Shown here one piece after another: positions 5,858-52,203 of a DNA stretch of 64,000 bases. This stretch comes from an uncultured virus (IMG/VR IMGVR_UViG_3300020219_000001) (taxonomy: Duplodnaviria; Heunggongvirae; Uroviricota; Caudoviricetes), in the IMG/VR virus record IMGVR_UViG_3300020219_000001. One strand, written 5' to 3'. The notes beneath the pieces were generated by a model. It was not told the origin of the DNA. It was given only the letters and a program-made list of their open reading frames with translations, and searched no databases. Both the position numbers and the translations under genes were made by a program. Position 1 is the first letter of the stretch. Each line of letters starts with the position of its first letter.

Positions 5858-5885
5858 TTGACTTGCAAGTTTCTTGGTACATACT
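5858..5885 (+). promoter_or_regulatory. Early promoter TTGACT-N16-CATACT, copy 1
   Basis: AGTTTCTTGGTACATACT identical in four intergenic copies. Confidence 0.8.
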
Positions 5886-5921
5886 TGTCTTGTCGGACCA
5901 ACAAGACTTCAGGATAAAACG

Positions 5922-6611
5922 ATGCTCTACGTCACGTATTTGCGGGTTAGCACACAGAAGCAGGGTGAATCGGGCCTGGGCGTGGACGCCCAACGCACGG
6001 CGGTGACCAAGTTCACTGCGGATGGTAGCGTGCTCGCCGAGTTCGTCGAGGTCGAGAGCGGCAAGAAGGCCGCCCGGCCGCAGCTAAAAGCCGCGTTGGC
6101 ACTCTGCCGGCAGCGCGGAGCTACGCTCGTGGTCGCAAAACTCGACCGCCTCGCGCGAAACGTGCTCTTCACGGCCACGCTCATGGAAGCCGGCGTCGAT
6201 TTCATCTGCTGCGACATGCCTTCAGCCACTCGGCTGACGATCCACCTGCTCGCGGCGATCGCCGAGGACGAGGCTCGACGTATCAGCGCCCGTACCAAGG
6301 CTGCTTTGTCGGAATTGAAGGCGAAGGGAGCACAACTTGGCTCCGCGCGGCCGGGCCATTGGGACGGACGAGAGCATCGACGTGGCTGGAACGGCATTCC
6401 CGCTGCTCGCAAGCTCGCAATGAAGCGAGAAAAGTTGAATCTGAGCTACGCCGAGTCACTTCCCGTGATCCGGGTGCTGAAAGAACGTGCTGCCACCTAC
6501 TTGGAGATCGCTTCGGCGCTCAACGCCCAGGGCATCAAGACACCACGAGGTCACATCTTTACCGCCAGTGCCGTTTGTGAGGTCATCCAACGTCTCGAAG
6601 CCGTTGCCTAA
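5922..6611 (+). CDS. Serine recombinase (resolvase/invertase family)
   Basis: YLRVSTQKQ catalytic Ser motif, ESG..RPQL, AKLDRLAR, E...IS.RTKAAL, short C-terminal helical domain. Confidence 0.93.
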   Translation: MLYVTYLRVSTQKQGESGLGVDAQRTAVTKFTADGSVLAEFVEVESGKKAARPQLKAALALCRQRGATLVVAKLDRLARNVLFTATLMEAGVDFICCDMPSATRLTIHLLAAIAEDEARRISARTKAALSELKAKGAQLGSARPGHWDGREHRRGWNGIPAARKLAMKREKLNLSYAESLPVIRVLKERAATYLEIASALNAQGIKTPRGHIFTASAVCEVIQRLEAVA

Positions 6612-13943: not shown

Positions 13944-14837
13944 ATGAGCAGCGTTGTTGCAAAACTAACCCGCATGAACCTGTTGAAGCCACCAGGCTTC
14001 TTAGAGCACAACGTCCACTACGAGACGATCACCGGATCACAATCGTATGGCGTGTCGGACGAGAACTCCGACATGGACGTGATCGGCTTCTGCATCCCGC
14101 CCAAAGACATGATTTTCCCACACCTCCGCGGCGAAATCCCTGGCTTCGGGACGCAGGTTCAGCGGTTCGAGCAGTTCATCGGCAATGCCACCGAGGTGGA
14201 CCGCAAGTACGACGTGACGATCTACTCGATCGTGAAGTTCTTCCAACTTTGCATGGAGAACAACCCGAACATGATCGACTCGCTCTTCACCGCTCAAGAC
14301 TGCGTCGTGCATTGCACGAAGGTCGGCAACATGGTGCGTGAGAAGCGCCGCATGTTCCTCCACAAGGGCGCGTGGCACAAGTTCAAGGGCTACGCCTACT
14401 CGCAGTTGCACAAAATGGACGGCAAGGGAGTCCAAACAGGCTCCAAGCGGTCTGAATTGCGAGAGAAGTTCGGCTACGACGTGAAGTTCGCCTACCACGT
14501 GGTGCGTTTGCTCGATGAGATCGAGCAGATTCTCACCGAGGGCGACATCGACCTGCGGCGCAACCGCGAGCAGATGAAAGCCATCCGCCGCGGCGATGTA
14601 CCCAAGGAAGACATCGTCAACTTCTTCAACGAGAAGGAGAAGGCGTTGGAAAGCCTCTACGACAAATGCACGCTGCCGTGGGGACCGCCGGTGGACCAAA
14701 TCAGGCAACTCCTCCTGAACTGCTTGGAAGAGCACTACGGGAACCTGGCGGACGCCGTTGTGGAGCCGGAAGCGGCCCTCAAAGCACTCCGCGAGGTCAG
14801 CGAAACACTCGAAAGGCACAGGTTACTGCTCGTATGA
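13944..14837 (+). CDS. Pol-beta superfamily nucleotidyltransferase (RlaP/YcgL-like)
   Basis: GSQSYG...SDMD, NNPNMID, YDVKFAYHVVRL, AIRRG. Confidence 0.88.
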   Translation: MSSVVAKLTRMNLLKPPGFLEHNVHYETITGSQSYGVSDENSDMDVIGFCIPPKDMIFPHLRGEIPGFGTQVQRFEQFIGNATEVDRKYDVTIYSIVKFFQLCMENNPNMIDSLFTAQDCVVHCTKVGNMVREKRRMFLHKGAWHKFKGYAYSQLHKMDGKGVQTGSKRSELREKFGYDVKFAYHVVRLLDEIEQILTEGDIDLRRNREQMKAIRRGDVPKEDIVNFFNEKEKALESLYDKCTLPWGPPVDQIRQLLLNCLEEHYGNLADAVVEPEAALKALREVSETLERHRLLLV

Positions 14838-15085
14838 ACCGATTTGACGCCGCCGTCGAACCACCGAAGACGCAGCAGAAGACCCTGATGCTTCTCGTCG
14901 AAGTCAACGTGCCTGGGGAGGGCTGGACGCCGTTCGCCTTACGCAACGGCACCTTGGACGCCGCCATGACGGACGTGAAGTCCGTGAGCAGTAAGCGAGA
15001 GCTTCGCGACACGCGCATCCGCCGGCTTTACACGCAAGCGGAAGTGGTCGAGGCGAACGAACAGATGGAGAGCTTCTGGGCGTGA
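14834..15085 (+). CDS. Hypothetical protein
   Basis: ATGA-coupled; stop codon overlaps the 5' end of the tmRNA-like RNA. Confidence 0.7.
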   Translation: MNRFDAAVEPPKTQQKTLMLLVEVNVPGEGWTPFALRNGTLDAAMTDVKSVSSKRELRDTRIRRLYTQAEVVEANEQMESFWA

Positions 15086-15217
15086 TGGGTTTCGACGACA
15101 TAGCCAAGTGATCTCGCTCGCCGTGGTAGGCAAGCAGGGAAACATGCGTTTATCACAAGTCCCTGTGTGAATCAGCAACTTGCTCGGACGCCGGTTCGAC
15201 TCCGGCCACGTCCACTA
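15078..15217 (+). ncRNA. Miniature tmRNA-like RNA (tRNA-like domain, 140 nt)
   Basis: Acceptor GGGCGTG/CACGTCC with G3-U, discriminator A, stemless D-loop ending TTCGAC, GGAC then T-arm GCCGG-TTCGACT-CCGGC. Confidence 0.8.
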
Positions 15218-15233
15218 ACACGAAAGGTACCGA

Positions 15234-15536
15234 ATGAGCAGAGAAGCAGTCTACTTCGACCCGTGTGACCTCCAAGAGGCCAAGAACGTGCTTAAAGAGC
15301 ACACTGTGAGCGTCATGGTCGAGCCTGAGGTCGCACGAGTGTGTCCAGAGCACTGGAGTGTTGTCTGGGCGCACGGGAGCATGAGTTTGCTCTCCACGGG
15401 TAGCTGTGGACCGAACACGGCCGTGGGCACGGCGGCGTTGTACGTCCGCCTGTGGCTCCAGGGCATCGACTGTGGCCTCGCGCGTGACTTGGCCTGTTCC
15501 TACTTCGATCGACGCATTGCGAGGACCATGAAGTGA
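15234..15536 (+). CDS. Hypothetical protein
   Basis: AAAGG RBS. Confidence 0.65.
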   Translation: MSREAVYFDPCDLQEAKNVLKEHTVSVMVEPEVARVCPEHWSVVWAHGSMSLLSTGSCGPNTAVGTAALYVRLWLQGIDCGLARDLACSYFDRRIARTMK

Positions 15537-17526: not shown

Positions 17527-17797
17527 AGCAATCTCCTTTGATGGGAGATTCTAACCGCGCAAAGAGCCGCGGTCAAACATGTGACCAGAAAGGGTCAGTA
17601 GTGCCGAAGGCTTCGATCCCCTTCAGCATGTTCTCGAAGGCTTCTTCGAGCGTTGCGCCGCCACGAGTGATTACCTTACGGTAGACCATCATGCGGCGTT
17701 CGTCGCGGTACGGCTTGCAGCCGACCCAAGCCGTGGCTTCGATCCCACACTCGTGGAGACCGAGCGTCCATCGCCACGGCTTAGGCACGCGATCGAG

Positions 17798-17872
17798 CAT
17801 GGGTGACAGGACTTGAACCTGCAACGACTGGTTTTGGAGACCATCGCTCTTGTCCAGTTGAGCTACACCCAT
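17798..17872 (-). tRNA. tRNA-Trp (CCA anticodon), 3' CCA not encoded
   Basis: Acceptor ATGGGTG/CACCCAT, D-arm GCTC/GAGC, loop CTCCAAA, T-arm GCAGG-TTCAAGT-CCTGT, discriminator G. Confidence 0.9.
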
Positions 17873-17875
17873 GTG

Positions 17876-18013
17876 TTAGTCCTCCGTGATCCCCTTCTTG
17901 AATTCCGTGATCCCCTTGCCGAGGGATCGCGCGACATCGGGCAGCCGCGAGCCAAATAACAGCAACCCGATGCCGGCAATCACAATGAGTTCAGGAATGC
18001 CGAGACCAAACAT
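17876..18013 (-). CDS. tatA: Twin-arginine translocase TatA/E subunit (45 aa)
   Basis: MFGLGIPELIVIAGIGLLLFGSRLPDVARSLGKGITEFKKGITED: TM helix, FG hinge, LP, LG..I.EFK amphipathic helix; not in the ORF track. Confidence 0.92.
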   Translation of the reverse strand: MFGLGIPELIVIAGIGLLLFGSRLPDVARSLGKGITEFKKGITED

Positions 18014-25479: not shown

Positions 25480-27150
25480 ATGAACCCGCTAGCAAAGGAG
25501 ATGCAACGGTCTATCGCCGAAGGCTTGATGGGTCGAACGCTCGCAGGTAGTTGCTCCCGCTGGGCGACCAAGCGGCGCGTGATGGGTGGTGACTTTCCCG
25601 GACCTTACTCCTGGAAGTACCACCCGTGGTGCAAAGAGCTTCACGACACGCAAGCGCCTGAAAACTACGCGATGAAGGGTGCCCAGCTTGGCGTCACGGA
25701 AGTGGCGATCAACCGGGCCTTCTACACGATCGACCAGTTGAAGAGGGATGTGCTCTACGTCCTCCCGACCGCTCAAACAGCGTCGGACTTCTCGAAGGGT
25801 CGATTCACCGTTGCGTTGAAGCACAGCGAATACTTGGCCAGTATCTTCACGGACACCAACACGGTGAACATGAAGCAGGCCGGTACCTGCAACTTGTACA
25901 TCCGCGGCTCACGAGGTGAAAGTAACCTCGTGTCGTTGCCGATCTCCGAGTTGATCCTGGACGAATTGGACAGGATGGCTCAGAAGGAGATCGCGGAAGC
26001 GAAGGAGCGCGTCACCGGTCAGAAGAAGCATCACATCTGGGGGTTATCGACGCCAACGATTCCGAACTACGGAATCCACAAGCTCTATAACCAAGGTACG
26101 CAGGAGCACTACACGTTTAAGTGCCCGCACTGCTCGCGTCACACCGAGCTTATCTACCCGGAATGCTTAGAGATCGTCGGCGACTCGGTACATGACATCA
26201 GGTGCAAAGAGTCCTTCCTAAAGTGTAAGGAATGCAAGCATCGCCTGGAGCACGAGCTAAAGCCTGACTGGCTAGCTGACGGTTCTTGGCACAGCATGGC
26301 CCCGAACGCAAACCCGGACAAACGAACCTTTCATATCAGCCAGATGTACTCCTTCACGGTGACACCTGGCGACCTCGCGGTTGCTTACTTCGCCGGCCTC
26401 GGCGACGAAGCGATGGCGAAAGAGTTCCACAACTCAAAGCTCGGCCTCCCGTTCATCGGTGAAGGTGCCCAAGTCACTGACGACCTGATCGAACAGGCCA
26501 TCGGTCGCTACACGATGAATGACGAACGTCCACGAATTGGTGGCGAGCGACTCATCACGATGGGTATCGACCAAGGACAGATCGTCTCGCACTGGGTTGT
26601 CTGTGAGTGGTTCGTTGACCAGATGTCCTCGGACATCAACATCGCCGCGAAGTGCAAGGTTCTTGCACACGGCAAATTCATGGGTGAGGACTGGCACGTT
26701 GCCGAGGACCTCATGGCTGAATGGCAGGTCTTAGCGTGTGTTGTTGACGCTGATCCTCAGATCGCTGAGGCACGTCGCTTCGCTAAGAAGTTCCCACGCT
26801 ACGTCACACTGTGCCGCTACCGCAGAGGCAAAGTCGCTCGCGAGATTTCCATCGCGGACGACGAGTCCGGCGTGGAGATGGCGACAGTAGACCGAACCAA
26901 CTGGCTAACCACATCGCTCGGACGGTTCCGCAACAAGCGGATCATGCTTCCCGCGGACGTGTCGGTTGAGTATCGGGAAATGATGAAGGCCCTAGTTCGC
27001 ACCTACGTCAAAGACGAGGACGGGAACTACATGGCCACGTTTGTTGAAACCGCACCTGACCACTACGCACACGCCTTCAACTATGCCGAGATCGCCCTGC
27101 CGTTGGCAGCTTCGATCACGACAGGGAAGGACGTTAGTAAGTTCTTGTAA
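25480..27150 (+). CDS. terL: Terminase large subunit (lambda GpA-like)
   Basis: MKGAQLGVTE Walker A, LILDELD Walker B, STPT, CPHC, MGIDQG nuclease, PDHYAHA. Confidence 0.93.
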   Translation: MNPLAKEMQRSIAEGLMGRTLAGSCSRWATKRRVMGGDFPGPYSWKYHPWCKELHDTQAPENYAMKGAQLGVTEVAINRAFYTIDQLKRDVLYVLPTAQTASDFSKGRFTVALKHSEYLASIFTDTNTVNMKQAGTCNLYIRGSRGESNLVSLPISELILDELDRMAQKEIAEAKERVTGQKKHHIWGLSTPTIPNYGIHKLYNQGTQEHYTFKCPHCSRHTELIYPECLEIVGDSVHDIRCKESFLKCKECKHRLEHELKPDWLADGSWHSMAPNANPDKRTFHISQMYSFTVTPGDLAVAYFAGLGDEAMAKEFHNSKLGLPFIGEGAQVTDDLIEQAIGRYTMNDERPRIGGERLITMGIDQGQIVSHWVVCEWFVDQMSSDINIAAKCKVLAHGKFMGEDWHVAEDLMAEWQVLACVVDADPQIAEARRFAKKFPRYVTLCRYRRGKVAREISIADDESGVEMATVDRTNWLTTSLGRFRNKRIMLPADVSVEYREMMKALVRTYVKDEDGNYMATFVETAPDHYAHAFNYAEIALPLAASITTGKDVSKFL

Positions 27151-27167: not shown

Positions 27168-28961
27168 ATGGCTGACGGATTGCCCAAGCTTGTTGATAGT
27201 CGGCACCCCTACTTCTTCGAGAATTGCGGCGACTGGCATAAGTGGCGCACGTGCTACTCAGGTGGGGACCGCTTCAAGGACAACTACCTAGTCCAGTTCA
27301 GTAATCGCGAAGACGCGGATGACTTCCGCGACCGCAAGTTCTTCACTCCGACCACGGTCTTCGCGAAGTCCGCGGTCAACAAGATTCGCAACTCCATCTT
27401 CCAACGGTTGGGTGACGTAACACGACAGGGTGGTAGCTCTGATTACCATCGAGCTATCGCGGGTGAGAAGCAAGGCGTGGACCGACGTGGTGCCACGATG
27501 AACTTCTTCCTGGGTAATAAGGTCTTGACGGAATTGTTGGTGATGGGTCGTGTCGGCGTCTACGTCGATATGCCCGAAATCCAACAGACCTCGACGATCG
27601 CCAGTGCTAAGGACTTAGCTCCTTACCTGTACAGCTACCCTGTCGAGAACATCCTCAACTACACCTGCACGAAGCCTGAAGCTCCTAGCGAGTTCCAATC
27701 CATCCTGCTGAAGGACTCAATCCTGAGGCACGATGCGATCAGCTTCATGCCGGTTGCCTACAACGACCGCTATCGGTACGTCTGGATCAGCCAGGACACC
27801 GGACTCGTGAACATCCAGTTCTACGACTCCAACGGTGAACCTGTTGATCGCGACGGTAACCCCGGCGGTCCAATCGAGTTGGGCCTGACTCGCATCCCGT
27901 TCGTCCTGATGGACATCGGTGACAGCCTGTTGAAGGACATCTGCGATCACCAGATCGCTCTGCTCAACCTCGAATCCAGCAACGTCAACTACGCCTTGAA
28001 GGCCAACTTCCCGTTCTACACCGAGCAGCGTGACATGCGTGCTGTCGGTGGACACTTGAAGAAAGTCAACACGGACGGCACTGCCACCACGGGTGGACAG
28101 GGCAACACGGACGAGAAGGTCAGCGTTGGTGTGACCCAAGGTCGTTACTACGACAAGGACACCGAACGCCCCAGCTTCATTGCACCTCCAGCCGAGCCTC
28201 TTGAGGCCACGATGAAGTTGCAGGACAAGCTGGAGAGCGACATCAACAAGATCGTCAACCTCGCAGTCACAAGCATGGGCGGCCGAGTGTCGGCTGAGTC
28301 CAAGAAGATGGACAACCAGGGCTTAGAAGCCGGGTTGTCGTTCATCGGGCTGGTCCTCGAAGGTGGTGAGCGACTCATCGCTGACTACTGGAGCAGCTAC
28401 GAAGAGAAGGTCGAGTCGAAACGCAAGACCGCCACGATCAAGTACCCGGATCGCTACAGCCTCAAGACCGACCTCGATCGAATCGAGGAGGCCGAGAAGT
28501 TGTCCGAACTGATGTACAAGGTTCCCAGCCCTCTCGCCAAGCGTGAGATCGCGAAGAACATCGTGAACGCTCTGTTCGGCGGCAAGGTCAGTGTCACCCA
28601 ACTGGAAGCAATCCAGAAGGAGATCGACACGACGCCTTACACGACCAGCGACCCGAAGACGATCATCGACGCGAAAGACGCCGGCCTTGTCGGCGAGAAG
28701 ACAGCTTCGATGGCCCTCGGCTTCAATGAGGACGAGTACCTCACGGCACGGAAGGATCACATCCGCCGCGCCACAGAGATCGCCAAGGTTCAAGGCATCG
28801 CCAAAGGCGGTGACGATCCGGGTGCCCGCGGAGTGTCTGACTTGTCGTCCAACCCGAAAGCCGGGAAGGACGAGAAGGAAGCAAGCCGTAACACGGACTT
28901 GAACACAACCACCAAGAAGCCGGTTCGAGGCGCAGGCCAAGAAACCGCTGAAGAGGAATAG
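27168..28961 (+). CDS. Portal protein
   Basis: Follows TerL; 597 aa; GRVGVYVDMP, IPFV, SAESKKMD. Confidence 0.85.
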   Translation: MADGLPKLVDSRHPYFFENCGDWHKWRTCYSGGDRFKDNYLVQFSNREDADDFRDRKFFTPTTVFAKSAVNKIRNSIFQRLGDVTRQGGSSDYHRAIAGEKQGVDRRGATMNFFLGNKVLTELLVMGRVGVYVDMPEIQQTSTIASAKDLAPYLYSYPVENILNYTCTKPEAPSEFQSILLKDSILRHDAISFMPVAYNDRYRYVWISQDTGLVNIQFYDSNGEPVDRDGNPGGPIELGLTRIPFVLMDIGDSLLKDICDHQIALLNLESSNVNYALKANFPFYTEQRDMRAVGGHLKKVNTDGTATTGGQGNTDEKVSVGVTQGRYYDKDTERPSFIAPPAEPLEATMKLQDKLESDINKIVNLAVTSMGGRVSAESKKMDNQGLEAGLSFIGLVLEGGERLIADYWSSYEEKVESKRKTATIKYPDRYSLKTDLDRIEEAEKLSELMYKVPSPLAKREIAKNIVNALFGGKVSVTQLEAIQKEIDTTPYTTSDPKTIIDAKDAGLVGEKTASMALGFNEDEYLTARKDHIRRATEIAKVQGIAKGGDDPGARGVSDLSSNPKAGKDEKEASRNTDLNTTTKKPVRGAGQETAEEE

Positions 28962-35499: not shown

Positions 35500-36915
35500 A
35501 TGTACGACATGTACATCTCCCCGGCGAGCCTCGTGTGCTTCGCCAACGACAACGACGCCCTGATCCCGGAGATTTGGGCCAACGAAGCTTTGATGCTTCT
35601 GAATCAGACCTCGGTCATGGCCGGCTTGGTCCACCGTGACTTCTCGAACGCTGTCGCCAACTTCGGTGACGTGGTCAACACCCGCCGGCCCCGCGCCATG
35701 CGACTGACCCGTAAGACCGACGCTGACGATGTGGTGACCCAGGACGCGATCGTGGACAACGTCCGCGTTCCGCTGGATCAGCACGGTGTCATCTCGTTCG
35801 TCATCCGTGACGGCGAAGCCACCAAGTCGATGCAGGAACTCGTGGACATCCACGTCGTCCCGGCGATCCAGGCCCTCGGCCGTGGTGTCGATCGTGGCCT
35901 CGCGGGCATGATCCACAAGTATTTCTCGACCAGCGACAAGCGCGCCGGCCGGCTCTCCAATCTCACGTCGAGCAACTCGAAGGATTTCCTCTTCGAGGCT
36001 CGCGAGATTATGAACCGCAACCTGTGCCCGCTCGACGGTCGTAACCTCGTGCTCGGCCCGACCAGCGAAACCCCGATCGTGAAGACCGACCTGTTCTTGG
36101 CTGCGGACACCCGCGGCGACGGCGGCAGCACGTTGGAGAACGCTCGCCTCGGCCGTGTGGTCGGTTTCAACACCTTCCTGAGCCAGAACGTCCCGTCGCT
36201 CACGACCGCTGCGGCGGACATCGCGACCGGTACGATCACGAACGCCTTGGCGGCGGGTGGTTCAGGTTCGCAAGCTTGCACCATCACCGGCTACGAAGTG
36301 AGCGTCGGTGAGTTCATCACCGTCGCTGGCAACGACCAGCCGACTCGGGCCACGGCGGTCACCGCCTCGACCCACACCACGGCGCTGACGTTGGATGAAG
36401 CCAACAAGTACGCCACGCTTAGCTCGGCGGCCGTGACGGCTTACAAGTCCTGCGACGTGAACGGTGCCTACGACGCTGGTTACACCAAGGAAATCGTGTT
36501 GGACGGCTGGACCGCCAACAAGGCTCCTCAGGTCGGCCAGTTGCTCGCGTTCGGTACGACCACGCGACACACCTACACGATCATCGAAAGCCGCCTGTCG
36601 GCCTCCGGTGAGCAGTCGGTGATGCTGGACCGTCCGCTGGAATACTCGCTCTCGAACAACGACCTGGCCTTCCCCGGCCCGGCCGGCACCTTCAACTTCG
36701 CGTTCCACAAGAATGCGTTGGCTCTCGTCTCCCGTCCGGTCGCGGCTCCCCGCGCCAACTCGGGTGTGATGAGCGCGGTGGCTTCGAGCGAGAACCTCGG
36801 TATGCGAGTCACGATGCAGTACGACACGGTCAAGATGGGCACGCGAGTGAACATGGACTTGCTGTACGGCTACGCCGTTCTCGACACCAACCTCGCTGTG
36901 GCGTTCTTGGGCTAA
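35500..36915 (+). CDS. Major capsid protein (P22 gp5-like) with an inserted beta domain
   Basis: IPEIWA.EAL, LVHRDF, GDVVN, NFAFHKNALALVSRP, DLLYG. Confidence 0.9.
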   Translation: MYDMYISPASLVCFANDNDALIPEIWANEALMLLNQTSVMAGLVHRDFSNAVANFGDVVNTRRPRAMRLTRKTDADDVVTQDAIVDNVRVPLDQHGVISFVIRDGEATKSMQELVDIHVVPAIQALGRGVDRGLAGMIHKYFSTSDKRAGRLSNLTSSNSKDFLFEAREIMNRNLCPLDGRNLVLGPTSETPIVKTDLFLAADTRGDGGSTLENARLGRVVGFNTFLSQNVPSLTTAAADIATGTITNALAAGGSGSQACTITGYEVSVGEFITVAGNDQPTRATAVTASTHTTALTLDEANKYATLSSAAVTAYKSCDVNGAYDAGYTKEIVLDGWTANKAPQVGQLLAFGTTTRHTYTIIESRLSASGEQSVMLDRPLEYSLSNNDLAFPGPAGTFNFAFHKNALALVSRPVAAPRANSGVMSAVASSENLGMRVTMQYDTVKMGTRVNMDLLYGYAVLDTNLAVAFLG

Positions 36916-37002: not shown

Positions 37003-37254
37003 ATGGAATTCATCTCGGTTCTACAGGAATTCGGCCCTCTGGCTGGAGTCGTTCTCTGGTTCATTTGGAGGGACTGGCAGCGTGAAGATCGTCTGACTAG
37101 CCGTATCGAGAAACTCGAAGACGAGCAGCGATCCATTCTGTGGCCGCTCATTGAGAAGGCGACGACTGTCATTGCCCAGAACACCGAGGTCATGGAGCGT
37201 CTGGAAAGCTCGTTGACGAGGGTGTCAAGCAATGCAAATCAATCGCAGTCTTAA
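37003..37254 (+). CDS. Single-TM coiled-coil protein (BhlA-like holin candidate)
   Basis: FGPLAGVVLWFIW..WQREDRL. Confidence 0.6.
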   Translation: MEFISVLQEFGPLAGVVLWFIWRDWQREDRLTSRIEKLEDEQRSILWPLIEKATTVIAQNTEVMERLESSLTRVSSNANQSQS

Positions 37255-37735
37255 TCAACGAATCAAGGCCGCATTGTACTCCTTGGAGAAGGACTATGGT
37301 GGCGGACCTTTGCACATCTACACCTTGAGCGCCGCCTCGGTTCACGCCGAGACCGGAGTCAAGACCATCGTCAAGGATGTCACCGTAATCAACAGAGTGA
37401 TTGTGCTACCGGCAAAGATCAGCCGGGACATCGTTCAATCCATCTCTCAGATCAGTGCCAACAAAGCATTCGTGTACGGCGGGTCCTACGACTCGCGAAC
37501 CCGCACCTTCATCATCGACCGCCGCAAGTGTCCCTCGATTAGCGAACTCAAGAACGACGACTGGTTCGTCTTCAACGGCCGCAAGTACGAGATCAAGGAC
37601 ATCCAGGAGTTCGAGTTTGACACGGCGTGGGTCGTCACGGCGCGGCACCAACTAGGAGATGTGTTTGAAGAGATTTTCCGTCTGTCTTCCGACCATCTGT
37701 TGGATTTGACGCAGTCTGCCACCGCCACATTGTAA
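37232..37735 (+). CDS. Head closure/stopper-like protein
   Basis: Position; DDWFVFNGRKYEIK. Confidence 0.65.
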   Translation: MQINRSLNQRIKAALYSLEKDYGGGPLHIYTLSAASVHAETGVKTIVKDVTVINRVIVLPAKISRDIVQSISQISANKAFVYGGSYDSRTRTFIIDRRKCPSISELKNDDWFVFNGRKYEIKDIQEFEFDTAWVVTARHQLGDVFEEIFRLSSDHLLDLTQSATATL

Positions 37736-41344: not shown

Positions 41345-44300
41345 ATGGCTGACGAAATTAAGCAGACATTTACGATTGATGCTTCCCAAGCCTTAGACGC
41401 TTTGCGGCAGCTAGATCAAGGGTACACCAGCTTATCTGGCAAGCTCGACGCGACCGCCAAGGCGATCTCTTCTTTCAACCGTCGAGCGGGCAACTCCGGT
41501 AAGGCTTTCGACAAAGCCATCAAGAGTGCCGACGCTTACAACCAGACGCTCCAGACGCTCGCCACCGGTGGGCTGACGAACGTCGCGAATCAATCTCAGC
41601 AGCTTAGCGGCGCACTGAAGCAGTTCGGCCGCTCCTCGCAGCAGAGCATGAACGCCGCCGCGAAGTCTACGCAGAACTTCGTCATCTCTTGGGAAACGCT
41701 CAGCCGTGTCGTGATGACTCAGTTCATCGTGCGAGCGATGAGCCAGTTCCGTGACGCTGTTAGTGCGGCGACCGAAGAGGCCATCGACTTCCAGCGGCAA
41801 GTCGCGCTCATCACCACGATCGCGTCGGACACCGGCTTCGATCAAATCGCTACCTCGGTCCGCAACATCTCCGACAGCTTCAACTTGCCCCTGCTCGACA
41901 CCGCGAAGGGTGTCTACCAGGCGTTGAGCAACCAGGTCGGAAACTTCGCGGACAGTCTCCGCTTCACAGAGGAGGCCGCTAAGTTCGCCCGCTCGACGAA
42001 TTCGTCGCTGGCGGACTCGGTAGACCTTCTCTCCGGTGCCCTTCGCTCCTACGGATTGAACGTGGAGGACACCGGACGAGTTGCAGGTATCTTCTTCACC
42101 GCGATCGACAAGGGCCGTGTTACGGCCGACCAGTTGGCGAATGCCTTTGGTCGTGTCGGCCCTGGTGCGGAAGCCATCGGTATCAGCTTAGAGGAACTCG
42201 CGGCTGCGGCGGCGACGATCTCCGATAAGGGTATCGCAACTGCTGAAACCTTGACGCAATTCCGCGGCATCATCACGGCTTTAACCAAGCCGACCGATGC
42301 CATGAAGGAACGCCTGCGTGAGTTGGGCTTCTCCAGCACGGAAGCCGCCATCGCCACGTTGCGATTGGATGGTGTGTTGGACGCCTTGGCTGGCACGACG
42401 GATGGCTCTCAAGCTGCGTTCGCGAAGTTGTTCCCCAACATTCGTGGTATCGGCGGTGCGACCGCCTTGACTGGCGACAACCTGAAGACGTTCGCGGATA
42501 ACATCCGTGAGGCGCAAGCCAACGGTGAGGAGTTCGCGAACTCGAAGTTCTTGCTCGCGACGGCCACGGATGGTGAAGTCCTCACGAAGGCAATCAACCA
42601 GATCAAGAATGCCTTTACGATCGAGTTGGGGCAAGCACTGGTGAAGACCGGTGCCGACCTGCTCGGCACGAAGGGCAGCGTCGAAGCGATCACGCAAGTC
42701 ATCAAGATCATGGCACAGACGATCCCCGCCCTTACGGGTGCGGCGATCGCACTGGCTGGAGCGTTGGGGACCGTCAAGATCGCGACGTTGGCTCTGGCCA
42801 GTCCGGTCAACCTGGTGGTCACTGCCTTGGCAGCCCTCGCTGTCGCCATCCCGGCGTCACTGAATGCCATCAAGGATGCACGGACGAAGAACGCCCTGAA
42901 GGGCATCACTGGACTTGAAGAGGCGAACGCCGCCGAGTTCGAGAGCTTTACCAGCACTCAGAACAACATTCTGAACCTCCAGAAGAAGATCGACCAGGAG
43001 TTGGTCGCCGGTGCCTTCACGAAGATCACGGAGATCAACAAGGCTTACCTGAAGGATGTGGACAACGCCAAGAACGCCAACGACGCAGTTGTGGCGAACA
43101 CTGAGGCGTCCCTCGACAAGATTCTAAGCGCCCGGACTAAGTTCGTGTCCGCGATCGAATCAGCCATCACGGAAAGCCAGCAGCAAGTTAAAGACTCGGT
43201 CGCTCGAATCGCAGACCTGCGAATCAAACAGGACGACCGACAGTTCGATACGAAGACCAAGGACTTCGACGATGCTCAGAAGGTGTTCGCGCTCAACCAG
43301 CGTGCCGCCCAGATCGCGTCGAAGGCCACGGCTGATCTGAAGGCTGCCTTTGCCTCAGGTGACGACGATGCACGCAACCGCGCGTTGGGCCAGTTCCAAC
43401 GTGCCGACGCTGCCGCGGCCGAAGCCCAGAGCATTGGCGAGCGTGCCGGCAACCGTGTGTTGGAAGCACAGTCGGCCAAGCAGTTGGAGTCCATCACGAA
43501 TCAACAGATTCGTGCTGAGGAGGAGATCAATCGACTCCAGGCCCAACGGCAGAAGGCATTAGCGTCGGAACGCGATCGCCAGGAAGGCATCGTCAAGCAG
43601 CTTCGTGAACAGACCAAGCTCGTCCTCGACAACACCGGCCAGTTCGATAAGAACGGTCAGTTGCTTGACCCGGATGAACTTGCGAAACGCTCGCAGGCAC
43701 GTGCCGAAGGTTTGAAGAAGATCGCCGAACTCGCGTTCAGCGGTAAGGACTTCAAGGCCGCGGACGCACTGGGGTTGGCGGACTTCGTGTCCACCATTGA
43801 GAACGATCTCTCGCAGCGGCCGATCAAGCTGGTGTTCGATGTCGAGTCTTCCATCCAGAAAGTCCAGGCCGAGATTCAGAAGTCCCTCGGCAACCTCGAT
43901 GTCCAGCTACCGTTTCTGAAGGATGCAGAAAAGCTCTCTGGTCGGAGTCTACGCGATTCTCCTGACGATATTCGGAAGGGTATCCAGGACTTGCAGACCG
44001 AGGGCAGCAACCTAAGGCAGCAGCGATTCCAACGTGCAAGCGCGGAGTTGAAGATCGAGCAGAAGCGAGCGGAGGTTCTCAAGGGAATCGCCGATCTTGA
44101 AGCACGACTTCCTCAGCGAGAAGCGTTGGGTCCGGAGTCGCAGCCCGCGAGGGACGCCACTCAAAGTGCCATCGAGCAGTTGAAGTCGGATGCAGCAGCG
44201 GGCGACATCAGTGTCGCCAACCTGAACCTGACGCTCAACAAGCTCAAGGAGATTGATTTCGGTAGCCAGTTCGGTGTCTTGAAAACGGACGCCGACCTGA

Positions 44301-44908
44301 TTCAGAAGTCATTCCAGAGCACGGCGGAACTGGCTCAGAACTTGAACCAGTTATCGGCTACTCCTCAGATTGACGAAGCTCGGCTGGCCGCGATTGAAAA
44401 CGTGCTGAACAAGGTCGGAGAAACCGACTTCACAGCCGTCTCGAATCTCGGAACCGGACTTTCCAACGCTGTGGAGCCGTCAAGCTTTGTCGCTACGAAT
44501 GCCACTACGACGGCGACCGCATACGAGCGGGCAGCCGCGGCCATCCAAAGCGTGCAAGGTGCGACCCTACCTGTGATCCCGTCGTCTACTCTGCCCGAAG
44601 GGAATCAGTTCGGTCGGGTCCGTTACTTCGCTGACGGCGGTATGGCCAGAGGTGTTGATACGATCCCCGCCATGCTTCGTGCTGGCGAGACCGTCATCAA
44701 CCCGAAGTCCTCGTCCCGGTTCTTCTCTCAGTTGCAAGCCATCAACGCCGGACAAAACCCTGTCTTCCGACAGGACGGCGGGACGGTAAACAACACCAAC
44801 GTCGGTGACATCCATATTCATGGTGCCACCAATCCCAAGGCTTCCGGCAAGGCAGTGGTTGACCAAATCAACCGACTGAAGCGCCGGGGTGCCGCACAGA
44901 TTCGATAA
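41345..44908 (+). CDS. Tape measure protein
   Basis: 1187 aa, Ala-rich helical, TP901-type core, C-terminal FADGG..DTIPAML..GE.V. Confidence 0.92.
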   Translation: MADEIKQTFTIDASQALDALRQLDQGYTSLSGKLDATAKAISSFNRRAGNSGKAFDKAIKSADAYNQTLQTLATGGLTNVANQSQQLSGALKQFGRSSQQSMNAAAKSTQNFVISWETLSRVVMTQFIVRAMSQFRDAVSAATEEAIDFQRQVALITTIASDTGFDQIATSVRNISDSFNLPLLDTAKGVYQALSNQVGNFADSLRFTEEAAKFARSTNSSLADSVDLLSGALRSYGLNVEDTGRVAGIFFTAIDKGRVTADQLANAFGRVGPGAEAIGISLEELAAAAATISDKGIATAETLTQFRGIITALTKPTDAMKERLRELGFSSTEAAIATLRLDGVLDALAGTTDGSQAAFAKLFPNIRGIGGATALTGDNLKTFADNIREAQANGEEFANSKFLLATATDGEVLTKAINQIKNAFTIELGQALVKTGADLLGTKGSVEAITQVIKIMAQTIPALTGAAIALAGALGTVKIATLALASPVNLVVTALAALAVAIPASLNAIKDARTKNALKGITGLEEANAAEFESFTSTQNNILNLQKKIDQELVAGAFTKITEINKAYLKDVDNAKNANDAVVANTEASLDKILSARTKFVSAIESAITESQQQVKDSVARIADLRIKQDDRQFDTKTKDFDDAQKVFALNQRAAQIASKATADLKAAFASGDDDARNRALGQFQRADAAAAEAQSIGERAGNRVLEAQSAKQLESITNQQIRAEEEINRLQAQRQKALASERDRQEGIVKQLREQTKLVLDNTGQFDKNGQLLDPDELAKRSQARAEGLKKIAELAFSGKDFKAADALGLADFVSTIENDLSQRPIKLVFDVESSIQKVQAEIQKSLGNLDVQLPFLKDAEKLSGRSLRDSPDDIRKGIQDLQTEGSNLRQQRFQRASAELKIEQKRAEVLKGIADLEARLPQREALGPESQPARDATQSAIEQLKSDAAAGDISVANLNLTLNKLKEIDFGSQFGVLKTDADLIQKSFQSTAELAQNLNQLSATPQIDEARLAAIENVLNKVGETDFTAVSNLGTGLSNAVEPSSFVATNATTTATAYERAAAAIQSVQGATLPVIPSSTLPEGNQFGRVRYFADGGMARGVDTIPAMLRAGETVINPKSSSRFFSQLQAINAGQNPVFRQDGGTVNNTNVGDIHIHGATNPKASGKAVVDQINRLKRRGAAQIR

Positions 44909-48896: not shown

Positions 48897-51637
48897 GGAC
48901 CATTTCCGCGGGTGGCTTAGCTAAGCTAGCCCAGCAGAAAGGTACCGAGCCGATCGTCATCATTGAAGTGGACTGGGGCGGCAGCGCCCCGGTCTCCTAT
49001 GCTGACCGGACCATCGGTGCCATCAAGGGTAAGATCATTCAACTGGGTGATCTCGATAACGTAATCGACATCCTTAACAGTAACAGTTCGCAATCTTTGG
49101 AGGTAGTGCTGGATGACACCGACGGAGCCATTAAAGGCATCATGGACACCCAGGACATCCACCAACGGACTGTTCGTGTATACCAGTGGTTTGACGGGTT
49201 GGCGTTGTCCGACAAGTTCCTGCTCTTCGCAGGAAAGCTCAGCAGTCCAGTCCTCTGGTCCGAAGCCGACCGAACTGTCAAGTTCACCGTCGTCTCCCAA
49301 CTCGAAGACAAGGAATTCGGCTTCAGCGCCGAAGAAGGACAGTTCCCGTTCATTCCCAAGGACATGGTAGGGAAGCCGTGGCCGGTGATCTTCGGGAAGT
49401 GTCTCGACGTGCCGGCACTCCAGGTGAACAAAGCCGTGAGCGGCTCCACCTTGTGTGGCCTCGGGATCATCAGTGGAAAGGAACTCCACGGACAGATTGG
49501 GATCGGTGGCCAAGACTGCGGTCTCGGCATGTCGATCGCGATGATGAGCGCCCAGATCAGCTTCCTCAACATCACCTCGGCGGCATGGGAGGACGAGGAC
49601 CCAGTCAAGTCGCTCCAACTGTTTGACCAGGCGAACGCGATCCGTGCTCAGATGGCTGCCTCCGCTGGTAGCCAGAATGACCAGCAAGCGTGCGCCAGTA
49701 ACCTTCGCACTCGCAAGATGGAAGAAGCGGAAGAGCAAGGTCTTGGCTGTAACCCGGTCCGCATCCTCGGCGGTGAGGACTTCCCACAGAACACGCCTAT
49801 CACGTTGAACATCAACGGCGGCTTGTTCACCGGGGTCATGGCGAACGACTCGTTCACGATCTCCACCCGTCAGCACTTGGAGAATGATGCCAAGGCCGAG
49901 TCGATCTTTAGTGGTGTCGAGGAGTCCCAATGCGAGACACCTACGGCCAACCAGAACTTCGACTTCAGCATGGAAGTCCCTCCCGGTAAGGGCGACCTGG
50001 GTGGCTCGACGATCCGGCGAGAAGGCATCATCATCTGTACCATCAACGCGAAGTCGCGACCCGCGACTCCGCAAGTGGCACAACACTTCTGGGCCGACGC
50101 CGGTAGCCGAGTGGTGCTCCATTCGGATGAGCCGATCACCTACATCGTCAGCATCACCCCGGGCACCGTCCTAGCTGTCAAGGCGTTCAAGACGCTCAAC
50201 AGCGAGCGGAAGCTCGTGAACGTACCGAACGACCTGTGGTACGTCGAGACAAAAACTTACGGAACGATCACGGCCGTCCAGGTTGTGGTGCGTAAGCCAC
50301 TCTCGACGATTGTCGATCAGGGATGGGACGATGACCTGTACATCACGTTCGAGTCCACCATCGGGCCGAACACGGTGGACATCATGGAGTACATCATCGA
50401 CAACTGGACCGACCTCGGTTGGGACACAGCGAGCTTCAACGCCGTCAAGGCGAAGCTCGTCAACAAGCCGATGAACTTCCCCGTCCTGGAGCGTAAGAAC
50501 ACGCTAGAGATTTTGAACGAGATGGCCTACCAAGCGTGCTGCGCCCTGTGGCTCAGCAACGGCATCTTCTTCATCAAGTATCTGGCGGAAGAGCCGACAT
50601 CAGATCAGACGATCACCGTCGCGGACATTGAGTCCGGCTCGGTGGAAGTCGGCCTGACGCCGACCGAAGACATTGTGACCTCGTGGGTTATCACGTGGTG
50701 GCTGAGCTATGCGGCTGAAGAGCCGGAGAAGATTCTGCTCAAGCACAATGTCAACAAGTACGGCACCAAGAAGGGCGAGTACGAGTTTTACTGCTACAAC
50801 CAGCCCGACATCATCTACAAGAACGCCACGTTCTGGATGATCCGGAAGGCCCACACGTTCAAGAAGCTCCGATTCAAGGGCTTCCTCAACTTGCTGAAGC
50901 TGGAGACCTACGACACGATCACGCTCAACCTGCCGTCCTACGTGGCCGCGGGCAACGTGAAGGGCGTCGTGGAGCAAGCCAGCTACGACTCGGAATCGAA
51001 CACGATGCAGTTCGAGGTCTGGGTCCCGGTGGAAGTCGGGACCATGACCAAGCTGGACGAAGCCTGGCCGGCAAGTCTCGCCGCGTCGTTCCAGTTCCCC
51101 ACGGCTCACGACGTGGCTAATGGCCACGCTGGAGGGGCTGGGATCGGCATTGGAGCGATCGGAGAACTACCCATCGGATACACGGATGGACTGCCGGATG
51201 GCGGCACCGTGATCGTGGGTGGCCCCAACGTGGCGTTCCGCCAGAAGGCCGACTGGGGCGACCGGACTCCTAGCGATTCCGGCTTCACGCCACAGACGAT
51301 CATCCCCGGCGACGTGTTCGCCGAGGTGAACAGCCAGCAGAATCCGAACCCCGACCTGTCGCTGAACTACATCGACCCGCTGCCGGCCGCGCAAGTGACC
51401 GACATCCCCAGCGGGACGGTCACGATCGACATCCGGAAGACGAGGATCATCGACTCGGACAATCCTGGTGTGGAGGCGAAGCTCGACACGATCATCAGGA
51501 AGATCGCGGACGAAGAGTTGTTCCTGGACACGGAGTCCAAGTTCAGCGATGGTACGAACGACGAGACCTTTGCGTTCGAGTTCGACGACGAGGAGTCGAA
51601 GTTCGGTGCCAAGATCGCATTCTTGAAGGACACCTAA
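48893..51637 (+). CDS. Tail tip/baseplate hub protein
   Basis: 914 aa; GKPWPVIFG motif; position. Confidence 0.75.
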   Translation: MRTISAGGLAKLAQQKGTEPIVIIEVDWGGSAPVSYADRTIGAIKGKIIQLGDLDNVIDILNSNSSQSLEVVLDDTDGAIKGIMDTQDIHQRTVRVYQWFDGLALSDKFLLFAGKLSSPVLWSEADRTVKFTVVSQLEDKEFGFSAEEGQFPFIPKDMVGKPWPVIFGKCLDVPALQVNKAVSGSTLCGLGIISGKELHGQIGIGGQDCGLGMSIAMMSAQISFLNITSAAWEDEDPVKSLQLFDQANAIRAQMAASAGSQNDQQACASNLRTRKMEEAEEQGLGCNPVRILGGEDFPQNTPITLNINGGLFTGVMANDSFTISTRQHLENDAKAESIFSGVEESQCETPTANQNFDFSMEVPPGKGDLGGSTIRREGIIICTINAKSRPATPQVAQHFWADAGSRVVLHSDEPITYIVSITPGTVLAVKAFKTLNSERKLVNVPNDLWYVETKTYGTITAVQVVVRKPLSTIVDQGWDDDLYITFESTIGPNTVDIMEYIIDNWTDLGWDTASFNAVKAKLVNKPMNFPVLERKNTLEILNEMAYQACCALWLSNGIFFIKYLAEEPTSDQTITVADIESGSVEVGLTPTEDIVTSWVITWWLSYAAEEPEKILLKHNVNKYGTKKGEYEFYCYNQPDIIYKNATFWMIRKAHTFKKLRFKGFLNLLKLETYDTITLNLPSYVAAGNVKGVVEQASYDSESNTMQFEVWVPVEVGTMTKLDEAWPASLAASFQFPTAHDVANGHAGGAGIGIGAIGELPIGYTDGLPDGGTVIVGGPNVAFRQKADWGDRTPSDSGFTPQTIIPGDVFAEVNSQQNPNPDLSLNYIDPLPAAQVTDIPSGTVTIDIRKTRIIDSDNPGVEAKLDTIIRKIADEELFLDTESKFSDGTNDETFAFEFDDEESKFGAKIAFLKDT

Positions 51638-52203
51638 TGAGACTTTCGAGGGAGAGCGTTGACCGCTTCTTCGATCATAACATCCACATCGAAAGTCGCA
51701 CGATCTTCATCGGCGATGGTGGGGACGACGAGATCGACGGAGTGATTGCTAATGGAGTCATCAAGGCGTTTCATCTCCTTGGTGAGTCCACTGACAAGCC
51801 GATCAAAGTGTTCATCAACAGCTTTGGCGGCTGCTGGTTTGGAGGGATGGCCATCTACGATGCCATCAAGCATTGCCCGTGCGAAGTGAATGCCTACGTG
51901 ATAGGCTCCGCGATGAGTATGGGCAGCGTGATCCTCCAGGCGGCGGACACAAGAGTGATCTACCCAAACGCGACTCTGATGATCCATGATGGATACGAGA
52001 CGCGAGTGGGTGACACTCCGCAGACATTCGCGAACTGGGCTGAGTTCAGCAAGAAGGGTCGCGAGATGATGTACCGAATCTACTCAGGAAGATCGGGTAA
52101 GCCGGTTGCCTTTTGGCGCAAGAAGTGCGGGTCGGACTTCATCCTAACGTCGCAGGAAGCAAAAGAGTTAGGACTGGTCGATTCCATCTATGGAGAGACA
52201 TAG
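51637..52203 (+). CDS. ClpP-family serine protease
   Basis: INSFGG, AIYDAI, AMSMGS (Ser), MIHD (His), EAKELGLVD. Confidence 0.88.
   Translation: MRLSRESVDRFFDHNIHIESRTIFIGDGGDDEIDGVIANGVIKAFHLLGESTDKPIKVFINSFGGCWFGGMAIYDAIKHCPCEVNAYVIGSAMSMGSVILQAADTRVIYPNATLMIHDGYETRVGDTPQTFANWAEFSKKGREMMYRIYSGRSGKPVAFWRKKCGSDFILTSQEAKELGLVDSIYGET

Follow-up and report, generated by a model that had tools for sequence, protein, structure and literature searches.

The locus at 15078-15217 raises the question of what a tmRNA gene represents, and what it may do for a phage, when its tRNA-like domain (TLD) is complete within 140 nt and no tag is encoded. The window analysed here is the whole stretch of 64,000 nt, from an uncultured virus (IMG/VR record IMGVR_UViG_3300020219_000001). 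A preliminary description of this DNA had reported all hallmarks of a TLD in these 140 nt, and each of them is present in the sequence and in the cmscan alignment:

15078..15217, + strand: the mini-tmRNA gene as a whole, matched by Rfam family RF00023, with 137 nt up to the discriminator
15078..15084, + strand: 5' strand of the acceptor stem, 7 bp with 15207-15213 including G3-U70, read from the sequence and cmscan
15085..15096, + strand: stemless D-loop analogue with UUCGAC at its end, from the sequence and the cmscan alignment
15186..15206, + strand: GGAC (15186-15189), followed by the T-arm (15190-15206)
15207..15214, + strand: 3' strand of the acceptor stem and the discriminator A (15214)

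None of the 12 base pairs that form the acceptor stem and the stem of the T-arm is disrupted, and the T-arm consists of a 5-bp stem and a 7-nt loop of UUCGACU. The two TLD halves follow each other in the standard order, and not as in a permuted two-piece molecule, as seen from the cmscan result. CCA is not encoded, the 3' end being A-CUA, and the base preceding G1 is U, which suits RNase P. The model search by cmscan, a check of the kind named in the preliminary description, gave a match to RF00023 that scored 52.7 bits, the gathering score being 47 (E-value 7e-18), and covered model positions 1-374, with 68 nt of the mini-tmRNA replacing 300 positions of the model; the hit is listed under the tmRNA family. 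ARAGORN called neither a tRNA nor a tmRNA at 15078-15217. The minimum-free-energy fold of the whole molecule is ordinary, with a z-score of -0.60 and 50 of 200 shuffles equally stable, so that the evidence rests on the family match together with the pseudoknot test. The gene at 15078-15217 is a real member of the tmRNA family and belongs with the tag-less phage tmRNAs, which are already known. An identical copy is found in the IMG/VR record G001, a 41-kb fragment, and the DNA of the window occurs in eight microbial-mat metagenome runs, from which it may originate; no RNA run is among the matches listed.

A Pfam scan of the 79 ORFs of the 64-kb window identified it as phage DNA, with terminase, coat and tape measure genes as well as replication genes. 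The earlier statement that a tmRNA-family gene with an alanine-type TLD and no tag frame lies in a phage holds in each of its parts. The genes that define the setting are as follows:

5874-6611: serine recombinase (Pfam)
13944..14837, + strand: RlaP-type (Pol-beta superfamily) nucleotidyltransferase (PF10127, 1.3e-17; PHROG 388, 7.4e-48)
14834..15085, + strand: 83-aa ORF upstream of the RNA, its start overlapping the stop of the preceding gene (ATGA)
15234..15536, + strand: 100-aa ORF downstream of the RNA, starting 16 nt past 15217, where the Rfam match ends
17797..17872, - strand: tRNA-Trp(CCA), the sole other RNA gene in the window, its CCA end not encoded
25480-27150: gpA-type terminase (Pfam)
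35500-36915: P22-type coat protein (Pfam)
41345-44908: tape measure protein (Pfam)
51637-52203: ClpP-family head-maturation protease (PHROGs)

The mini-tmRNA is tightly packed among genes that all run on the + strand. Neither a promoter-like nor a terminator-like site was found flanking it, so it would need to be processed from a longer transcript. The 83-aa and 100-aa flanking ORFs have no match in Pfam or PHROGs and belong to no known family. The stop codon of the 83-aa ORF, UGA at 15083-15085, forms nt 6-8 of the mini-tmRNA, and cleavage by RNase P at 15078 would therefore leave the message of this ORF without a stop. The same UGA at nt 6-8 belongs to the 5' end of the tmRNA consensus (Rfam consensus line), so the overlap may be due to chance. 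No SmpB was found by Pfam among the 79 ORFs. The ClpP-family ORF at 51637-52203 was considered as a link to the proteolysis of tagged proteins and was dropped, because its PHROG matches are head-maturation protease families.

Several further features of the neighbourhood were recorded. The RlaP-type nucleotidyltransferase is widespread in large uncultured phages, with 82 relatives in IMG/VR and 439 in metagenomes. Neither of the two RNA genes of the window encodes CCA, and the enzyme might conceivably repair or complete tRNA 3' ends. The 8-mer ACTAACAC is located at 15214-15221 (+), directly after the acceptor stem of the mini-tmRNA, and again at 17873-17880 (-), directly before tRNA-Trp. The window holds 4 copies of ACTAACAC against 0.95 expected, a number reached by 1 of 100 shuffles. 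Just upstream of tRNA-Trp, a 45-aa ORF at 17876-18013 (-) resembles by eye a TatA/E-type twin-arginine translocase subunit, and it has no PHROG match.

Between the TLD halves, the preliminary description had noticed a CAAGT/ACTTG pairing and a GCAGGGA/TCCCTGT hairpin. Both are present, the former as the P2 helix and the latter as one of the two stems of a predicted pseudoknot. The interior was modelled as follows:

15102..15109, + strand: P2 helix, 5' strand, pairing with 15178-15184 in 7 bp with one bulged C
15123..15131, + strand: 5' strand of stem 1 of the PK1-like pseudoknot, 9 bp with G-U pairs among them (in-house H-type search)
15134..15140, + strand: PK1-like pseudoknot stem 2, 5' strand, 7 bp (in-house H-type search)
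15148..15156, + strand: PK1-like pseudoknot stem 1, 3' strand (in-house H-type search)
15160..15166, + strand: PK1-like pseudoknot stem 2, 3' strand (in-house H-type search)
15167..15177, + strand: 8-nt linker with A at -4, then GCA at 15175-15177
15178..15184, + strand: P2 helix, 3' strand (constrained fold)

P2 appears in one of several co-optimal structures from the constrained fold, and the cmscan alignment of this region contains several non-standard pairs. The pseudoknot was found with a simple in-house script which adds up stacking energies over two stems that cross each other and is crude in this respect. Its predicted loops are 2, 7 and 3 nt long, and it begins 26 nt past UCGAC. The stacking sum of -27.8 kcal/mol compares with -16.2 ± 4.4 kcal/mol in dinucleotide shuffles, 2 of 300 of which matched it; when a longer interior was used, the shuffles gave -17.7 ± 3.3 kcal/mol and 1 of 200 reached the value of the window. 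As a positive control, the script detected the 5' pseudoknot in all eight full-length tmRNAs of related phages, at 16-33 nt past UCGAC; between 1 and 24 of 200 shuffles did as well as these control pseudoknots. For four of the relatives (L094, L095, L100 and L101), this pseudoknot starts 26-28 nt past UCGAC, which is the expected place of PK1.

In a MAFFT alignment with the full-length relatives, the mini-tmRNA falls into two blocks with a single gap of about 270 columns between them. Its 5' interior lines up with P2 of these relatives and with the 5' half of their PK1, the stem-1 strand being placed under PK1 stem 1. Unanchored local alignments of the interior against the relatives were not significant, as 108, 228 and 69 of 500 shuffles did as well, and position-anchored sum scores were equalled by 18 and 26 of 1000 shuffles. 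Taken as a model, these results suggest that the interior of the mini-tmRNA consists of P2 and a PK1-like pseudoknot at the canonical place of PK1. PK2-PK4 are absent from the mini-tmRNA, given the 68 nt that stand for 300 model positions in cmscan and the MAFFT gap of about 270 columns. The earlier remark that no pseudoknot series is visible is thus correct for PK2-4, but it fails for the hairpin 15134-15140/15160-15166, which is predicted to be crossed by the 9-bp stem 15123-15131/15148-15156.

Past the pseudoknot, the linker leads to a GCA codon at 15175-15177 which, judging from its position and surroundings, is probably the remnant of a resume codon. Passages of PMC2481249 on E. coli tmRNA place the resume codon 12 nt after PK1 and describe A86, at -4, as a nearly invariant determinant of frame choice. 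In three full-length relatives, a hand count gave 10-12 nt between PK1 and the resume codon, compared with 8 nt in the window. No credible tag frame was found in the mini-tmRNA, either by ARAGORN or by inspection of the frames. Beyond the pseudoknot, frames 0 and 2 have no stop, frame 2 being that of GCA, while in frame 1 the first codon is the UGA at 15168-15170. The GCA frame extends through the P2 strand to the T-arm and meets no stop before the 3' end. The single closed frame, 15120-15170, spans 16 codons from GCC to UGA, contains an ATG at 15144 and ends in VPV; its segment 15144-15170 is the ...NMRLSQVPV-stop frame read earlier, and the earlier judgement that it has no Ala-Ala end and provides no usable tag stands. 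We do not regard 15120-15170 as a tag, since it crosses both pseudoknot stems, lacks the A at -4 and ends in VPV. What looks new about this gene is the structured interior as modelled, with P2, the pseudoknot and the resume-codon remnant.

The nucleotidyltransferase gene at 13944-14837 served as the handle for related phages, and 80 IMG/VR and 80 metagenome loci were examined, among which no relative of the enzyme exceeds 64% identity. Of the 79 non-self IMG/VR records, 45 were searched over their full length for tmRNA. Relatives with a full-length ssrA, which the preliminary description had named as the sign of a recent deletion, were found in part: 8 of the 45 records carry a full-length tmRNA of 297-379 nt, and L021 has its full-length ssrA some 500 nt downstream of the gene for the nucleotidyltransferase. 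ARAGORN read ordinary tags in five of the eight and was silent on the mini-tmRNA in the same run. Six of the eight do not encode CCA. A strict TLD finder returned from the nucleotidyltransferase loci just the copy of the window and that of L021. The flanking ORFs have no homologues in these loci, bar one weak match of L380 to the 100-aa ORF (32% over 50 aa, E-value 4e-4).

An orthologue was also sought by pattern scans and sequence searches. The mini-tmRNA has a spacing of 87-89 nt in the pattern scanned for, and three earlier scans had used spacings that exclude it, the first of which returned 0 matches. The IMG/VR scan at the spacing of the window returned its own record and 6 unrelated loci of 135-137 nt, and no orthologue. 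Megablast against the phage collection gave no match, and blastn with the 140 nt found as its sole match a 32-nt T-arm stretch in Xanthomonas phage XacN1. Contigs of four DNA runs that partially share the window contained one identical fragment and otherwise unrelated short pieces, with no variants.

Two permuted tmRNAs came to light beside these searches. An unannotated stretch of the XacN1 record (37177-37596) matches RF04321 with 123.2 bits and RF01850 with 107.8 bits. In Caulobacter phage RB23, ARAGORN called a permuted tmRNA with a 21-residue tag ending in KLAA beside tRNA genes, at a site that RF00023 scores with just 24.2 bits.

Comparison with known full-length phage tmRNAs, namely those of the mycobacteriophage Bxz1 group (named in passages of PMC4131195), those of L094-L101 and the permuted ones of RB23 and XacN1, revealed both likeness and difference. 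Their PK1 is located where the PK1-like pseudoknot of the mini-tmRNA is predicted, most of them also lack an encoded CCA, and the acceptor stem sequences of L101 and XacN1 are identical to that of the mini-tmRNA. However, they are 297-379 nt long and possess PK2-4 and tag frames, with ends such as LAAA, MAA and LAA, unlike the RNA of the window. Based on P2, the spacing of PK1, the linker with A at -4 and GCA, and the full-length genes of related phages, a single internal deletion in a full-length phage ssrA fits the anatomy best, and the apparent retention of PK1 with a GCA resembling a resume codon points to the same descent. The mini-tmRNA is thus most likely an internally deleted phage ssrA, as far as its sequence tells.

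The preliminary description had considered a one-piece tag-less phage form unusual, which proved not to be the case. The tmRNA of mycobacteriophage DS6A is termed 'TLD only' in passages of PMC4131195 (Hudson et al. 2014) and PMC11915505, and dozens more were met in the IMG/VR scans. In the DS6A record, the element was traced to positions 28478-28560, a stretch without annotation, and its RF00023 score is 43.2 bits. Similar to the mini-tmRNA of the window, it is phage-encoded and in one piece, with an intact alanine-type TLD and no tag frame. It is 83 nt long with little beyond the TLD, whereas the mini-tmRNA of the window, with 140 nt, P2, the PK1-like pseudoknot and the resume remnant, exceeds the 65-85 nt or so of this type. 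Apart from the consensus of the family, the sequences of the two have nothing in common. CDS-less plastid and mitochondrial tmRNAs also appear in passages of the 2025 tmRNA database paper (PMC11915505). Those of jakobid and oomycete mitochondria and the plastid forms of about 65 bp are, according to that source, TLD-reduced and frameless like the RNA of the window, and unlike it they are organellar, much shorter and devoid of a pseudoknot.

In the IMG/VR pattern scan, 83 of 121 loci among the matches listed have a perfect acceptor stem with G3-U70. These 83 represent at least 64 unique sequences, mostly of 75-81 nt; rarer forms measure 95, 118-124 (four of them) and 135-137 nt, the last with 6 loci and four unique sequences in the scan at the spacing of the window. 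Nine mini-tmRNAs from IMG/VR that were scored lie above the Rfam cut-off, with 54.5-70.6 bits; L450 scores 38.9 bits with RF00023. The IMG/VR forms share the TLD hallmarks and the perfect 7-bp acceptor stem with G3-U70 with the window, and none is an orthologue of its mini-tmRNA. All eight mid-size forms tested lack a significant pseudoknot, as 34, 61, 132, 129, 129, 45, 52 and 58 of 200 shuffles reached their best values; the pseudoknot of the window, in contrast, was matched by 1 of 200, against 34-132 of 200 for these eight.

Two groups of mid-size forms show conserved interiors of their own. In L574/L579, L547 and L564, forms of 135-137 nt from three phage contigs, the interiors hold a conserved stretch of about 13 nt, and no significant pseudoknot was detected (129, 52 and 58 of 200 shuffles, respectively). 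This stretch falls in different reading frames and therefore looks like an RNA element and not a tag. The interiors of L144, L146 and L150 (118-124 nt) align with each other and have a closing helix around AGUA and AAGAC-N-UG-RAAA elements, a pattern that by eye resembles a motif of the loop-E or sarcin-ricin type.

A lead to the host was sought with the 3' part of the TLD. Its exact 22-mer has no match in 185,579 species genomes, and the degenerate 22-mer hit mostly tRNA-Ala and tRNA-Val genes among the matches listed. In a scan with the acceptor sequence fixed, the matches listed include L543, a Chloroflexi MAG (G047), with a full-length tmRNA of 393 nt whose acceptor stem and T-stem are the same as those of the mini-tmRNA and which also lacks an encoded CCA. 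This sequence identity provides a weak lead to the host lineage.

Based on the anatomy and on the published TLD-only case, we propose, at roughly even confidence, that a phage ssrA has lost its messenger part by internal deletion and now competes with the tmRNA of the host. The deletion would have left the alanine-type TLD, P2 and PK1, along with the resume codon and the A that precedes it, and removed the rest of the tag frame, the stop and PK2-4. RNase P might free the 5' end of the RNA from a polycistronic transcript of the + strand, with trimming at the 3' end, followed by addition of CCA by a CCA-adding enzyme. AlaRS would charge it through G3-U70 and A73, and SmpB and EF-Tu of the host would bind it; charging and SmpB binding are indeed what the intact alanine identity set and TLD predict. 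The RNA could then compete with host tmRNA either by titrating SmpB or by entering stalled ribosomes and accepting the nascent chain without adding a degradation tag, and either route would weaken trans-translation and ssrA tagging in the host during infection. A molecule of the DS6A type strongly inhibits tmRNA, perhaps via titration of SmpB, according to passages of PMC4131195 and of PMC11915505, both citing Mao et al. 2009, and this published inhibition points to interference with host trans-translation. By analogy, the likeliest role of the mini-tmRNA is interference with, or tag-free use of, the trans-translation of the host. An anticodon-nuclease decoy, which had also been suggested, is unlikely because the mini-tmRNA has no anticodon arm.

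The same anatomy could belong to an inert relic, a phage ssrA recently killed by the internal deletion, functionless and not yet eroded. We consider this a tentative alternative that has to be taken seriously. The PK1-like pseudoknot and the GCA resembling a resume codon are kept with nothing translatable behind them, which an unselected relic accounts for just as well, P2 is imperfect, being a short helix of 7 bp with a bulge, and the mini-tmRNA is a singleton for which no conserved relatives were found. Its score of 52.7 bits is also below those of the nine other mini-tmRNAs, yet DS6A and L450 score lower still. However, the TLD has preserved every identity element and every pair of the acceptor stem and T-arm, and the neighbouring genes are packed so tightly that there is no spare DNA on either side. 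In addition, CDS-less forms turn up again and again across phages, an argument for the retention of such RNAs. If the gene were just a relic, it would be of little wider interest.

It is also conceivable, though unlikely, that the RNA is a purpose-built 'half tmRNA' of TLD, P2, PK1 and resume codon, which would enter the stalled ribosome, take over the nascent chain, undergo the first translocation and then offer neither tag nor stop, so that the products of broken messages escape ssrA-directed proteolysis during infection. A bolder rider on this reading is that excision of the RNA turns the message of the 83-aa ORF into a non-stop one, in which case the fate of the product would be set by the mini-tmRNA versus the host tmRNA. 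Still more doubtful is a tRNA-like processing signal, in which the TLD would mainly serve as a site for RNase P and 3'-end cleavage to cut a polycistronic mRNA. The arrangement of the genes would suit it, since the RNA contains the stop of the ORF 14834-15085 and is followed after 16 nt by another ORF; but the overlapping UGA is part of the general tmRNA consensus and may be fortuitous, and such a signal would have no need for G3-U70, P2 or PK1.

The two remaining explanations are both highly improbable. A working miniature tmRNA with a short unconventional tag could draw on the frame 15120-15170, which begins with an alanine codon and whose stop codon adjoins a stem, but that frame has neither an upstream pseudoknot nor the A at -4 (the A86 requirement in passages of PMC2481249), crosses both pseudoknot stems, has no C-terminus of the Ala-Ala type and drew no call from ARAGORN. 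An attP derived from the tmRNA gene of a host, or else a tRNA-Ala of the ordinary or intron-bearing sort, would agree with the serine recombinase gene at 5874-6611, with tmRNA genes being common integration sites (as stated in passages of PMC10865867) and with an acceptor stem sequence shared with many tRNA-Ala genes among the matches listed, but both TLD halves are present in gene order where attP cores carry the 3' part alone (same passages), D-stem and anticodon arm are both missing, a tRNA was not called by ARAGORN, and the Rfam table, in which the best family of a clan is kept where hits overlap, lists tmRNA.

Returning to the internally deleted phage ssrA, its architecture is unusual and probably transitional. 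Tag-less phage tmRNAs have barely been studied, DS6A being the one case named in the papers cited here, yet they are common in the IMG/VR scans. The mini-tmRNA looks like an intermediate between full-length phage ssrA and the TLD-only forms of 80 nt, and this intermediate-like anatomy supports a repeated origin of TLD-only forms by internal deletion. It also provides a construct made by nature with which to ask what a tmRNA must contain in order to interfere with ribosome rescue or to join it.
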